A DNA stretch of 64,000 nucleotides from Escherichia coli. Its GTDB lineage: Bacteria > Pseudomonadota > Gammaproteobacteria > Enterobacterales > Enterobacteriaceae. The notes beneath the pieces were generated by a model, which worked only from the letters and a program-made list of their open reading frames with translations, searched no databases and was not told the DNA's origin. This document shows positions 14,543 to 37,585 of the stretch, piece after piece; within the stretch, counting starts at the first letter, position 1; the number at the start of each line of letters is the position of its first letter. Location of the stretch: NCBI RefSeq assembly GCF_013122565.1, contig NZ_CP053258.1; one strand, 5' to 3'. Made by a program: the position numbers and the translations under genes.

Positions 14543-15035
14543 TCACTTCACTGTGGAAAATGAGGAAATATTATTTTTTTTGCGCTTCGTAATTAATGGT
14601 TATAAGGTCGGCCAGAAACCTTTCTAATGCAAGCGATGACGTTTTTTTATGTGTCTGAATTTGCACTGTGTCACAATTCCAAATCTTTATTAATAATTCA
14701 CCTAAAACGACGCTGATCCAGCGTGAATACTGGGTTGTACGGTATTTTCCTTATATTCATCAGTTTCATTTAAGCAAGGGTTTCTGCTTCATTCCTGATG
14801 AAAGTACCATCTAAAAAGATAATCTTAATAAATCTATTAAGGGAGCACACTGGATATTTCACTTGTGAAACTGTTTCACTCCCTTACTTAATTGATAGAG
14901 TTACCTTCCGCTTTTTGAAAACACGCAACGACCATTTTTGCACTTAGATACAGATTTTCTGCGCTGTATGGCATTGATTTGCTGCTAATCCTGTGGTTTG
15001 CACTAGCTTTAAGTGGTTGAGATCACATTTCCTTG

Positions 15036-17552: not shown

Positions 17553-19637
17553 ATGGAAAGCAAACGTCTGGATAATGCCGCGCTGGCGGCGGGGATTAGC
17601 CCCAATTACATCAATGCCCACGGTAAACCGCAGTCGATTAGCGCCGAAACCAAACGGCGTTTGCTTGACGCGATGCATCAACGTACCGCCACGAAAGTGG
17701 CGGTAACGCCAGTCCCGAATGTCATGGTTTATACCAGCGGCAAAAAAATGCCGATGGTGGTGGAGGGCAGCGGCGAATATAGCTGGCTGCTGACCACCGA
17801 AGAAGGAACGCAGTACAAAGGCCATGTAACTGGGGGCAAAGCGTTCAATCTACCGACGAAGCTGCCGGAAGGTTATCACACGCTGACGCTTACCCAGGAA
17901 GACCAGCGCGCGCATTGCAGGGTGATTGTCGCCCCGAAACGCTGTTACGAACCGCAGGCGTTGCTGAATAAACAAAAGCTGTGGGGTGCCTGCGTCCAGC
18001 TTTATACGCTGCGATCGGAAAAAAACTGGGGTATTGGGGATTTTGGCGATCTCAAAGCGATGCTGGTGGATGTGGCAAAACGTGGCGGGTCGTTCATCGG
18101 CCTGAACCCGATTCATGCGCTCTATCCGGCAAATCCGGAGAGCGCCAGCCCATACAGCCCGTCTTCTCGCCGCTGGCTGAATGTGATTTATATCGACGTT
18201 AACGCCGTTGAAGATTTCCATCTTAGCGAAGAGGCTCAGGCCTGGTGGCAGTTGCCGACCACGCAACAGACGCTGCAACAGGCGCGGGATGCCGACTGGG
18301 TCGATTACTCCACGGTTACCGCCCTAAAAATGACAGCATTACGAATGGCGTGGAAAGGTTTCGCGCAACGTGATGATGAGCAGATGGCCGCGTTTCGCCA
18401 GTTTGTTGCAGATCAAGGCGACAGCCTGTTCTGGCAGGCAGCCTTTGATGCGCTACATGCCCAGCAAGTGAAAGAGGACGAAATGCGCTGGGGCTGGCCT
18501 GCATGGCCAGAGATGTATCAGAACGTGGATTCACCAGAAGTGCGTCAGTTCTGCGCAGAACATCGCGATGACGTTGATTTTTATCTCTGGTTGCAGTGGC
18601 TGGCTTACAGCCAGTTTGCCGCCTGCTGGGAGATAAGCCAGGGCTATGAAATGCCGATTGGCTTGTATCGTGATCTGGCGGTTGGCGTAGCGGAAGGTGG
18701 GGCGGAAACCTGGTGCGACCGTGAACTGTATTGCCTGAAAGCGTCGGTTGGCGCGCCGCCGGATATCCTCGGCCCGTTGGGGCAGAACTGGGGATTGCCG
18801 CCGATGGATCCGCATATCATCACCGCGCGTGCCTATGAACCGTTTATCGAGCTGTTGCGTGCCAATATGCAAAACTGCGGCGCATTACGAATTGACCATG
18901 TGATGTCGATGCTGCGTTTGTGGTGGATACCGTATGGCGAGACGGCAGATCAGGGCGCGTATGTACACTATCCGGTGGATGATCTGCTTTCGATTCTGGC
19001 ACTCGAAAGTAAACGTCATCGCTGTATGGTGATTGGTGAAGATCTCGGTACCGTACCCGTAGAGATTGTTGGTAAGCTGCGCAGCAGCGGTGTGTACTCC
19101 TACAAAGTGCTCTATTTCGAAAACGACCACGAGAAGACGTTCCGTGCACCGAAAGCGTATCCGGAGCAGTCGATGGCGGTTGCGGCGACACATGACCTGC
19201 CTACGCTACGCGGTTACTGGGAGAGCGGGGATCTAACGCTGGGCAAAACCCTGGGGCTGTATCCGGATGAAGTGGTACTGCGCGGTCTGTATCAGGATCG
19301 CGAACTGGCGAAGCAAGGACTGCTGGATGCTCTGCATAAATATGGTTGTCTGCCAAAACGTGCCGGGCATAAGGCATCGTTGATGTCGATGACGCCGACG
19401 CTTAATCGTGGTTTGCAGCGCTACATTGCCGACAGTAACAGTGCTCTGTTAGGACTACAGCCGGAAGACTGGCTGGATATGGCCGAACCGGTGAATATTC
19501 CTGGCACCAGTTACCAGTATAAAAACTGGCGACGCAAGCTTTCCGCAACGCTTGAGTCGATGTTTGCCGATGATGGCGTGAACAAGTTGCTGAAGGATTT
19601 GGACAGACGGCGCAGAGCTGCAGCGAAGAAGAAGTAG
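17553..19637 (+). CDS. malQ: 4-alpha-glucanotransferase (amylomaltase)
   Basis: 694 aa. Confidence 0.97.
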   Translation: MESKRLDNAALAAGISPNYINAHGKPQSISAETKRRLLDAMHQRTATKVAVTPVPNVMVYTSGKKMPMVVEGSGEYSWLLTTEEGTQYKGHVTGGKAFNLPTKLPEGYHTLTLTQEDQRAHCRVIVAPKRCYEPQALLNKQKLWGACVQLYTLRSEKNWGIGDFGDLKAMLVDVAKRGGSFIGLNPIHALYPANPESASPYSPSSRRWLNVIYIDVNAVEDFHLSEEAQAWWQLPTTQQTLQQARDADWVDYSTVTALKMTALRMAWKGFAQRDDEQMAAFRQFVADQGDSLFWQAAFDALHAQQVKEDEMRWGWPAWPEMYQNVDSPEVRQFCAEHRDDVDFYLWLQWLAYSQFAACWEISQGYEMPIGLYRDLAVGVAEGGAETWCDRELYCLKASVGAPPDILGPLGQNWGLPPMDPHIITARAYEPFIELLRANMQNCGALRIDHVMSMLRLWWIPYGETADQGAYVHYPVDDLLSILALESKRHRCMVIGEDLGTVPVEIVGKLRSSGVYSYKVLYFENDHEKTFRAPKAYPEQSMAVAATHDLPTLRGYWESGDLTLGKTLGLYPDEVVLRGLYQDRELAKQGLLDALHKYGCLPKRAGHKASLMSMTPTLNRGLQRYIADSNSALLGLQPEDWLDMAEPVNIPGTSYQYKNWRRKLSATLESMFADDGVNKLLKDLDRRRRAAAKKK

Positions 19638-21173: not shown

Positions 21174-21294
21174 TCTGGCGTTTGAGAATCACCAGAGCGG
21201 GGTAAATTTAAATTATGAGAGGTTGGTCATATTATCGCGGAGAAACGAAGGGAGGGATTTGCCAAAGCAATGCTGCGCCAACGTCTGGCACATG

Positions 21295-33858: not shown

Positions 33859-35481
33859 TTACAGCTTCGGACCAGCCGCTACCAACGCGGCACCCGCTGG
33901 GGTGTCGGTGTATTTATCGAAGTTGTCGATAAACAGTTTCGCCAGCGTTTCAGCTTTTTCCTGCCACTGTTCCGGGGAAGCGTATGTGTTACGCGGATCG
34001 AGAATCTTCGTGTCTACGCCCGGCAGTTCTGTTGGGATCGCCAGGTTAAACATCGGCAGAGTGAAGGTTTCTGCGTTATCCAGCGAACCGTTGAGGATGG
34101 CGTCGATAATAGCACGGGTATCTTTGATGGAGATACGTTTGCCAGTACCGTTCCAGCCGGTGTTAACCAGATACGCCTGCGCACCTGCCGCTTGCATACG
34201 TTTTACCAGCACTTCTGCGTACTGAGTCGGGTGCAGCGACAGGAACGCCGCGCCGAAGCAAGCGGAGAAGGTTGGCGTCGGTTCGGTAATGCCACGCTCA
34301 GTACCGGCCAGTTTGGCGGTGAAGCCAGAGAGGAAGTGGTACTGGGTTTGATCGGCAGTCAGACGAGAAACCGGTGGCAGCACACCAAAGGCGTCTGCGG
34401 TCAGGAAGATAACTTTAGTTGCGTGGCCCGCTTTGGAAACCGGCTTAACGATGTTATCGATGTGATAGATCGGATAAGAAACGCGGGTGTTCTCGGTTTT
34501 TGAACCATCATCAAAGTCGATAGTGCCATCTTCACGCACGGTGACGTTTTCCAGCAGCGCATCGCGACGGATAGCGTTGTAGATTTCAGGTTCCGCTTCT
34601 TTCGACAGCTTGATAGTTTTTGCGTAGCAGCCGCCTTCGAAGTTAAACACGCCGTCATCGTCCCAGCCGTGCTCGTCATCACCAATCAGGCGACGTTTCG
34701 GGTCGGTGGAAAGGGTGGTTTTACCGGTGCCGGAAAGGCCGAAGAACACCGCAACATCGCCTTTCTCGCCAACGTTGGCGGAGCAGTGCATAGAAGCGAT
34801 ACCTTTCAGCGGTAGCAGGTAGTTCATCATTGAGAACATCCCTTTCTTCATTTCGCCGCCGTACCAGGTGCCGCCAATCAGCTGCATGCGCTCGGTCAGG
34901 TTAAACGCCACGAAGTTTTCGGAGTTCAGACCCTGTTCTTTCCACTGCGGGTTAGTGCACTTCGCGCCGTTCATAACGATAAAGTCTGGTTTGAAACCTT
35001 CCAGCTCTTCATCGCTCGGGCGAATAAACATGTTTTTGACAAAATGCGCCTGCCAGGCCACTTCGGTGATGAAACGAACGGAAAGACGCGTGTCCGGGTT
35101 CGCACCACAGAAAGCGTCGACAACGAACAGACGTTTGCCGGAAAGCTGTTTGGTCACCAGGCCTTTCAGATGCTGCCAGGTTTCCGGAGAGAGAGGTTTG
35201 TTGTCGTTCTTACCTTTGCCTTTGTCTGCCCACCAGAAAGTATCGCGAGTGGTATCGTCACGGACGATATACTTATCTTTTGGTGAACGACCGGTGAAGA
35301 TCCCGGTATCGACGGCAACGGCACCCAGATTAGTTAACACCCCGCGCTCATAACCTGTCAGGCTCGGATCGAGCTCTTCCTGATACAGCAGGTCGTAGCT
35401 TGGGTTGTAAACGATATCATGTACGTCACTGATACCATAAGCCTCGAGTTCTTGCGGGGTCAAACCATTGTTAACGCGCAT
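33859..35481 (-). CDS. pckA: phosphoenolpyruvate carboxykinase (ATP)
   Basis: [17 protein letters not shown]...; 540 aa. Confidence 0.96.
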
Positions 35482-35701
35482 TTCACTGCTCCTTAGCCAA
35501 TATGTATTGCCTGAATAGTAAAGTCTTTTTGGGGGTGTTAACCGCGACAAGGCTCATAGATTTACGTATCTGGAGAAATTCATATTTGACAAAAAACTCC
35601 GTGATTCCTGTCACGAAACGGTTGCTATTATCGCAGAAATAGCATTTTAGGTGTGGAAAATGTTCTTAAAAGGTTAAATCTTGGTTTATATGGCGGGAAT
35701 A

Positions 35702-35717
35702 TTGTGAGTGAAATCGC
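35702..35717 (-). promoter_or_regulatory. CRP-like site (tgtgagtgaaatcgca) in the pckA upstream region
   Basis: TGTGA-N6-TCGCA, about 220 bp upstream of the pckA start. Confidence 0.3.
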
Positions 35718-35860
35718 ATTCCGGAATGAAATTAATGCAAATTCAATCAGTAAAGTATCGATTCACCACGCTAACTTTTTTTTGATTATTTTTTGGAAAA
35801 AGCAAAATACTACTGCCCGGATGCGATAATTAACCCACCTTTTGATTCTGGATAACCAAC

Positions 35861-37585
35861 ATGGATAACGTTGAACTTTCACCGGCAACACGCTGGGGGA
35901 TGATTGCTACCGGATTACTTCAGGGGCTGGTTTGCTACCTGCTGATCGCCTGGCTTGCCGGAAAAAATCACAGTTGGATTGTTTATGGCGTGCCTGCGAC
36001 CGTCGCGTTTTCATCCGTTTTACTCTTCTCCGTGATCTCTTTTAAACAGAAGCGCCTTTGGGGATGGCTGGCGCTGGTGTTTATTGCCACGCTGGGGATG
36101 AGCGGCTGGCTGAAGTGGCAAACTGATGGCATGAACCACTGGAGAGCTGAAAAGGCGCTTTGGGATTTTGGCTGCTATCTGCTGCTGATGGCAATGTTGT
36201 TGCTACCGTGGATACAACAAAGCCTTCGCATCCGCAATGACAGTAGCCGCTATAGCTACTTTTACCAGTCAGTATGGCATAACGTACTTATATTACTGGT
36301 GATTTTTCTCGCCAATGGCCTGACGTGGCTGGTGCTTTTACTGTGGGGTGAGTTGTTTAAACTTGTTGGCATCACGTTTTTCAATACGCTCTTTTTTGCA
36401 ACCGACTGGTTTATGTATCTTACCTTAGGTCTGGTTACCGCGCTGGCGGTGATCCTCGCGCGAACACAGTCACGTTTAATCGACTCTATTCAAAAGTTGT
36501 TCACGCTAATCGCCACGGGGTTGCTGCCGTTAGTATCATTGCTAACCCTGATGTTTATCATCACCCTGCCGTTTACGGGCCTGAGCGCGATTTCTCGCCA
36601 CATCTCCGCCGCCGGGTTGCTGTTAACGCTGGCCTTTTTGCAATTGATCTTAATGGCTATTGTCCGCGATCCGCAAAAAGCGTCACTTCCCTGGACGGGG
36701 CCGTTGCGTTGCCTGATTAAAACCGCTCTGCTGGTTGCTCCGCTGTATGTGTTCATCGCCGCCTGGGCGTTATGGCTGCGGGTCGCTCAGTACGGCTGGA
36801 CTGTCGACCGCTTGCAGGGCGCGCTGGCGGTGCTGGTGTTACTGGTATGGTCGCTGGGGTATTTTGTCAGTACCGTCTGGCGGAAAGGGCAAAATCCCCT
36901 TGTTCTTCAGGGAAAAGTGAACCTTGCGGTTTCGTTATTCGTGTTGGTAATACTGGTGCTTCTTAATTCGCCGGTGCTGGACAGTATGCGCATTAGCGTG
37001 AACAGTCATATGGCGCGTTATCAGAGCGGCAAAAACACGCCAGACCAGGTAACTATCTACATGCTCGAACACAACGGTCGCTATGGACGTGCGGCGCTTG
37101 AGTCGCTGAAAAGCGATGCCGAGTATATGAAAGACCCGAAACGCGCGCGGGATCTGCTGATGGCGTTAGATGGGGAGCAACAACTTCATGAACAGGTATC
37201 GGAAAAAGTATTAGCCGATAATGTGTTAATTGCCCCTGGTTCTGGTAAACCGGATGCGACATTCTGGTCGGCTTTAATCCAGGATCGCTATAACGTGATG
37301 ACCTGCATTGAAAAAGACGCCTGCGTACTGGTCGAGCAAGATCTGAATAGTGATGGTCAGGCGGAGCGGATCCTGTTTGCTTTTAATGATGACAGAGTCA
37401 TTGTCTATGGCTTTGACTCAGACAGAAAAGAATGGGACGCGCTTGATATGAGTTTACTTCCGAACGAAATAACGAAAGAAAAATTACTCACAGCTGCGAA
37501 GGATGGAAAACTGGGGACGAAGCCGAAAGCGTGGCGCGATCTGAGGGTAGATGGTGAAACGCTGGAAATAAACTTAAGTAAGTGA
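35861..37585 (+). CDS. yhgE: inner-membrane protein YhgE
   Basis: 574 aa polytopic. Confidence 0.9.

Follow-up and report, generated by a model that had tools for sequence, protein, structure and literature searches.

A high-scoring cAMP-CRP site upstream of Escherichia coli pckA and a possible second, proximal CRP promoter in the pckA-yhgE spacer

The stretch of DNA analyzed here (the window, 64,000 nucleotides of the Escherichia coli contig NZ_CP053258.1) carries pckA, encoding ATP-dependent phosphoenolpyruvate carboxykinase, and, in divergent orientation, yhgE. The start codon of pckA is the complement of positions 35479-35481 and the ATG of yhgE lies at 35861. Both the limits of the open reading frames and annotated E. 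coli genomes agree that the region 35482-35860, which an earlier note had singled out as divergent, is exactly the 379-bp spacer between pckA on the minus strand and yhgE on the plus strand. The elements discussed below are as follows, listed from left to right along the window.

33859-35481, minus strand: coding sequence of pckA (ATP-dependent phosphoenolpyruvate carboxykinase), from the list of open reading frames and named as annotated in E. coli genomes; the regulated gene
35515-35520, minus strand: hexamer TACTAT, -10 element of a predicted proximal class II promoter (P2), 19 nt after Box 3
35543-35558 (22-mer 35540-35561), minus strand: CRP-like Box 3, core TATGAGCCTTGTCGCG, 9.1 bits, conserved in 14 Enterobacteriaceae
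35600-35615, minus strand: CRP Box 2, a perfect palindrome CGTGA-N6-TCACG, at +6 to +21 of the predicted P1 start
35627-35635, minus strand: extended -10 element TGCGATAAT (conserved TGnNATAAT) of the distal promoter (P1)
35655-35677, minus strand: A/T-rich block TTAACCTTTTAAGAACATTTTCC, a conserved island in the Enterobacteriaceae alignment, at -57 to -35 of P1, between Box 1 and the -10 element
35703-35718 (22-mer 35700-35721), minus strand: CRP Box 1, core TGCGATTTCACTCACA in the pckA sense, a high-affinity activating site by matrix score, conservation and K-12 SELEX
35754-35767, minus strand: Cra (FruR) box GGTGAATCGATACT, centre at about -140.5 from P1, about 50 bp upstream of Box 1
35861-37585, plus strand: coding sequence of yhgE (DUF4153, putative transport protein), from the list of open reading frames and E. 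coli annotation; the divergent neighbour

The spacer is 99% identical to that of E. coli K-12. Taken as a whole, the segment from pckA to yhgE (33859-37585) shares no more than 98.0% identity with any member of a set of 5,426 complete E. coli genomes, and 96.8% with K-12, whereas elsewhere in the window, for example around 4864 and 18179, identity to K-12 is 99-100%. This lower identity suggests that the segment may be locally divergent or recombined.

The spacer had been reported to contain a CRP-like motif. This motif, TGTGAGTGAAATCGCA on the plus strand, is indeed present, its true position being 35703-35718; the coordinates given earlier (35702-35717) lie one base too far to the left. Read in the pckA sense, nine of the ten core bases of Box 1 fit TGTGA-N6-TCACA, one half-site being TGCGA instead of TGTGA and the other a perfect TCACA. 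Judged by the bare pattern alone, the match lacks significance and is no rarer than chance: 0.23 exact occurrences are expected per shuffled window, at least one match was found in 20 of 100 shuffles, and TGTGA-N6-TCACA with up to one mismatch occurs once in the 64-kb window where 1.96 occurrences are expected. The scan with a CRP position weight matrix, which the earlier note had proposed as a check, returned a high score and not the low one that the note had named as speaking against the site. For this purpose a symmetric 22-bp matrix was derived from 126 distinct RegulonDB sites (Shimada 2011, Table S4), realigned by expectation-maximisation; pck is absent from these training sites. Box 1 scored 14.31 bits, which places it third among the approximately 64,000 positions of the window and at the 85th percentile of the training sites. 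In shuffled windows 0.37 matches are expected at this score, and when the AT-rich intergenic region alone was shuffled the score was reached with P = 0.017. Box 1 is thus a two-fold symmetric 22-bp site scoring in the range of known sites, as is characteristic of canonical cAMP-CRP sites. Given this high full-matrix score, the call cannot be regarded as weak, and the low grade first assigned to it was not borne out.

The other top matches of the matrix, at 14657-14678, 15009-15030, 4864-4885 and 21213-21234, fall in the malP-malT, glpE-glpD and nfuA-gntT spacers and served as positive controls. Those at malT and gntT coincide with CRP boxes in Table S3 of Shimada 2011, and the glpD site is a member of the training set. 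The recovery of these known sites indicates that the matrix behaves properly. A further match of 11.8 bits (GAATGTGATTTATATCGACGTT, 18179-18200) lies within the coding sequence of malQ and is probably either a chance match or a silent intragenic site.

A CRP activator site at pckA is already known from E. coli K-12. Genomic SELEX identified a CRP peak in the yhgE-pck spacer with two boxes, TGCGATTCCACTCACA and, about 100 bp downstream, CGTGATTCCTGTCACG (Shimada 2011, Table S3). The former is the K-12 orthologue of Box 1. It occupies the same position between yhgE and pck, with the same half-sites (TGCGA ... TCACA), the same flanks and the same distance to the extended -10 element and to the ATG. 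Compared in the pckA sense, TGCGATTCCACTCACA of K-12 and TGCGATTTCACTCACA of the window differ in a single spacer base, the spacer reading TTCCAC in K-12 and TTTCAC in the window, which corresponds to 13.66 and 14.31 bits, respectively. In a crp mutant the activity of the pck promoter is lower (Shimada 2011), and added cAMP raises it only when Crp is present (Kochanowski 2017); the latter authors argue that the net physiological effect of CRP on pck is activation. According to papers citing Nakano 2014 (FEMS Microbiol Lett 355:93), a high-affinity CRP site upstream of the pck start activates transcription, and low-affinity sites downstream of the promoter repress it at high levels of cAMP-CRP. 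Box 1 and the weaker boxes at or after the predicted start share this arrangement of tandem sites of unequal affinity, for which the citing papers describe activation at low and repression at high cAMP-CRP. The matrix score, the K-12 SELEX box and the crp- and cAMP-dependent K-12 promoter together support the reading of the motif as a CRP site for catabolite-activated expression of pckA, as had been suggested. The text of the supplement to a Crp ChIP-exo study holds no pck entry. In the supplements of Cappable-seq, in vitro run-off transcription (ROSE) and Shigella transcription start site studies, neither pck nor yhgE nor the expected coordinates were found, and a literal-sequence search of the literature with the letters of the K-12 box gave no match.

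For comparison, pckA loci were fetched from 80 species, and 14 sequences of Enterobacteriaceae (Escherichia, Citrobacter, Enterobacter, Kluyvera, Pseudocitrobacter, Superficieibacter and relatives) were aligned. Within Box 1, no variation is seen in the GCG of TGCGA or anywhere in TCACA, and two columns of the spacer vary, giving the pattern GCG...T....TCACA; in this alignment the half-sites behave as expected under purifying selection. In 11 of 13 related loci the centre of Box 1 lies at -228.5 to -230.5 from the pckA ATG; the two remaining loci have it at -224.5 and -225.5. Two divergent sequences show Box 1 and the extended -10 element shifted by 4-5 bp. Twelve of the 14 Enterobacteriaceae carry the extended -10 motif TGnNATAAT itself, at -153 to -155 relative to the ATG, and in two it is degenerate.

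From the extended -10 element the start of P1 can be predicted at about 35620, 7 nt after the hexamer, which would give a leader of 139 nt. Relative to this start, which is taken from the conserved extended -10 element alone, the centre of Box 1 would lie at -90.5, a populated class I position. With this predicted geometry, the mismatch with the start that the earlier note had named as its second ground for refutation would not arise. Class I CRP sites have their centres near -61.5, -71.5, -82.5 or -92.5 upstream of the start, on the same face of the helix. Among the activator sites of RegulonDB, comparable positions are those of cstA (-89.5), araJ (-90.5), ansB (-91.5) and araBAD and rhaT (both -93.5) (Shimada 2011, Table S4). 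Like these promoters, P1 would combine one far-upstream CRP dimer with a weak or absent -35 element. Unlike the ara and rha promoters, pckA has no known pathway-specific co-activator; its CRP site is instead accompanied by an upstream Cra box and by weaker CRP boxes that follow the predicted start. A scan for promoters and terminators found no consensus sigma-70 promoter with both hexamers on the pckA strand of the spacer, which fits an activator-dependent promoter of the extended -10 type. The conserved A/T-rich block between Box 1 and the -10 element is a candidate for an UP-like region at which the alpha C-terminal domain could dock, or possibly for the site of another factor.

The Cra box, Box 2 and Box 3 are additional elements that the earlier note did not contain. 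The Cra box (35754-35767) is a candidate operator that fits the asymmetric Cra consensus with the left half TGAAWCG. The sequence GTGAATCGAT is kept in 8 of the 14 Enterobacteriaceae. Work in vitro has recorded a Cra site at pck, which ChIP-exo missed (Kim 2018). Box 2 scores 9.52 bits with the CRP matrix and is the second CRP box of the SELEX peak (Shimada 2011, Table S3). Wherever Boxes 1 and 2 occur together, in several genera, they are spaced by 103 bp. Box 2 would be expected to be a low-affinity site of the kind that, according to the papers citing Nakano 2014, represses at high cAMP-CRP. Its location fits the reported repression, since it covers +6 to +21, downstream of the predicted P1 start.

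Read as RNA, Box 2 forms a terminator-like hairpin followed by a U-run (35596-35619) at the start of the predicted leader, as noted in the promoter and terminator scan; a GGA in its loop is reminiscent of a CsrA site. Fold energies of the leader are unremarkable (z-scores of -1.06 over its full 139 nt and -0.75 over the first 45 nt), and the minimum-energy fold of these 45 nt omits the hairpin. A search of the leader against Rfam gave no match. An RNA element in the pckA leader was consequently dropped as an explanation, the fold energies being ordinary and an Rfam match lacking. Among the 14 Enterobacteriaceae, species with an altered Box 2 loop retain the GTGA and TCAC arms, which a protein binding site explains as well as an RNA stem.

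The best-conserved part of the spacer is not Box 1. It is Box 3 together with the hexamer TACTAT, whose conservation reaches deeper than that of Box 1. In a second alignment, of 13 Enterobacterales including Yersinia, Serratia, Pectobacterium, Rahnella and Budvicia, the sole invariant islands are TGA-N6-TC.C.G within Box 3, TAnnAT, and the Shine-Dalgarno sequence AGGA. TAnnAT is invariant in both alignments, and the positions at which Box 3 does not vary are those that carry the most information in the CRP matrix. Of 56 gamma-proteobacterial pckA loci, 28 have a -10-like hexamer 17-19 nt after the best CRP match of their proximal 200 nt, against a background of 10% (binomial P ~6e-14, uncorrected for shared ancestry). 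This spacing is found in Enterobacterales, Pasteurellaceae, Vibrionaceae and Aeromonas. Outside the Enterobacteriaceae, Box 1 and the distal -10 element are absent, Box 1 being missing in Yersinia, Serratia, Pectobacterium and similar genera. A class II CRP site is centred near -41.5, where it replaces the -35 element, with a recognisable -10 element downstream. Box 3 and TACTAT look like such a promoter of ancestral origin. Judged from the hexamer, P2 would start at about 35508 and have a leader of 27 nt, with the centre of Box 3 at -42.5 from that predicted start.

The pckA class II promoters of Pasteurellaceae and Vibrionaceae involve the same gene and the same regulator; Box 3 aligns with their sites, and the -10 hexamer follows at 17-19 nt. 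They differ in strength, the proximal sites of Pasteurellaceae scoring 15-20 bits compared to 9.1 bits for Box 3, and Box 1 has no counterpart outside the Enterobacteriaceae. In Escherichia, Box 3 is weak and its spacing to the hexamer 2 bp longer. Box 3 is missing from the CRP boxes of the yhgE-pck SELEX peak (Shimada 2011, Table S3). Cameron and Redfield (2006) included pckA among the Vibrio promoters that they studied. The likeliest history, judged by this distribution, would be an ancestral proximal class II promoter to which a distal class I promoter was added in the Enterobacteriaceae.

In Escherichia albertii (locus L002, 1100-1300), the spacer has a distal half that bears no relation to the E. 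coli type and that contains a GC-rich inverted repeat (AAGGTGGAGA...TCTCCACCT). All three CRP boxes are retained in E. albertii, as are the Cra box and both -10 elements.

How far the proximal elements account for CRP control of pckA bears on the role of Box 1. The main, ancestral control could be exerted through Box 3 and a class II promoter at TACTAT, with Box 1 and the distal promoter as a modulating addition specific to the Enterobacteriaceae, an arrangement that is compatible with an activating Box 1 and that we regard as a tentative possibility. The three invariant islands in the 13 Enterobacterales, the 17-19 nt spacing that recurs from Enterobacterales to Pasteurellaceae, Vibrionaceae and Aeromonas, the pairing in half of the 56 loci against a background of 10%, and the genera such as Yersinia, Serratia and Pectobacterium that do without Box 1 all speak for it. 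However, Box 3 reaches just 9.1 bits in Escherichia and lies outside the CRP boxes of the SELEX peak, and the 19-nt spacing in Enterobacteriaceae puts its centre at -42.5 or beyond, a less favourable position than -41.5. In addition, the papers citing Nakano 2014 call the weak pck sites repressing. With similar reserve, we consider that Escherichia pckA might retain P2 as an unrecognised ancestral class II promoter, held in common with Yersinia, Serratia, Pasteurellaceae and Vibrionaceae, in which case Box 1 and the distal promoter would be a later overlay of the Enterobacteriaceae and Box 3 would act both as the activator site of P2 and as a brake on transcripts from the distal promoter.

The remaining alternatives concern Box 1 itself. 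Control of the divergent yhgE, instead of or besides pckA, is conceivable since the spacer is shared, Box 1 lies about 150 bp upstream of the yhgE ATG, and bidirectional action of CRP at divergent pairs has been considered possible (Shimada 2011). We consider it unlikely, no sign having emerged that yhgE shares the site. The SELEX table gives no known target for the spacer, and the novel targets of that study include pck but not yhgE. Moreover, the distance of Box 1 is fixed relative to the -10 element and ATG of pckA, while the end of the spacer next to yhgE shows little conservation of either sequence or length, and no conserved -10 element was seen on the plus strand at class I or class II distance. 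That Box 1 is a functionless chance match in AT-rich intergenic DNA would agree with the counts of the bare pattern, which stay within chance expectation. This reading is nonetheless highly improbable in view of the full-matrix score, the SELEX peak over the K-12 orthologue (Shimada 2011), the CRP- and cAMP-dependence of pck promoter activity (Shimada 2011; Kochanowski 2017) and half-sites that are invariant across genera. The TGCGA half-site also raised the idea of a CRP-S site, at which CRP binding needs Sxy/TfoX; TGCGA is the defining core of CRP-S sites according to Cameron and Redfield (2006). Such sites carry TGCGA in both halves and lie upstream of competence genes, whereas Box 1 has the C in one half alone, the other half being a perfect TCACA, and pckA is not a competence gene. 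A single TGCGA half is common in ordinary RegulonDB sites, including those of bglG, xylA, srlA, aer and nagE, and cAMP-CRP alone selected the fragment in SELEX (Shimada 2011). CRP-S identity of Box 1 was therefore rejected and is scarcely credible.

Taken together, 35703-35718 is very probably a functional high-affinity cAMP-CRP activator site of pckA. The match and the conservation of Box 1 were established here, and CRP binding and CRP/cAMP-dependent promoter activity come from the K-12 literature; what we infer is where transcription starts, that Box 1 acts by a class I mechanism, and what Box 3 and P2 do. The control region could then operate as follows. In the absence of glucose, when cAMP is up, a CRP dimer would bind the 22-bp Box 1, which precedes by about 90.5 bp a distal sigma-70 promoter with the extended -10 element TGCGATAAT and no usable -35 element. 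CRP at Box 1 would recruit RNA polymerase via the alpha C-terminal domain, in the class I manner, and so switch on PEP carboxykinase. Box 1 would form part of a composite control region, with the Cra box about 50 bp further upstream. At very high cAMP-CRP, Box 2 (+6 to +21) and Box 3, further into the leader, could fill and damp transcription. Box 3, with its deeply conserved -10 hexamer, would probably double as the class II site of the proximal promoter.

The CRP site of pckA belongs to the textbook switch between glycolysis and gluconeogenesis. For the biology of E. coli, the confirmation of Box 1 adds nothing new; it validates a call that had been under-rated. There is modest comparative value in the finding that the distal CRP site is limited to the Enterobacteriaceae and that the proximal box and -10 element are conserved across several gamma-proteobacterial orders, and this conserved proximal box with its hexamer is the only new angle. 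If P2 is a true promoter, the activation and subsequent repression of pck by CRP would need to be read again, since a box at present counted among the repressing sites would have an activating role as well, and pckA would illustrate cleanly how promoters can be layered at a gene of central metabolism.
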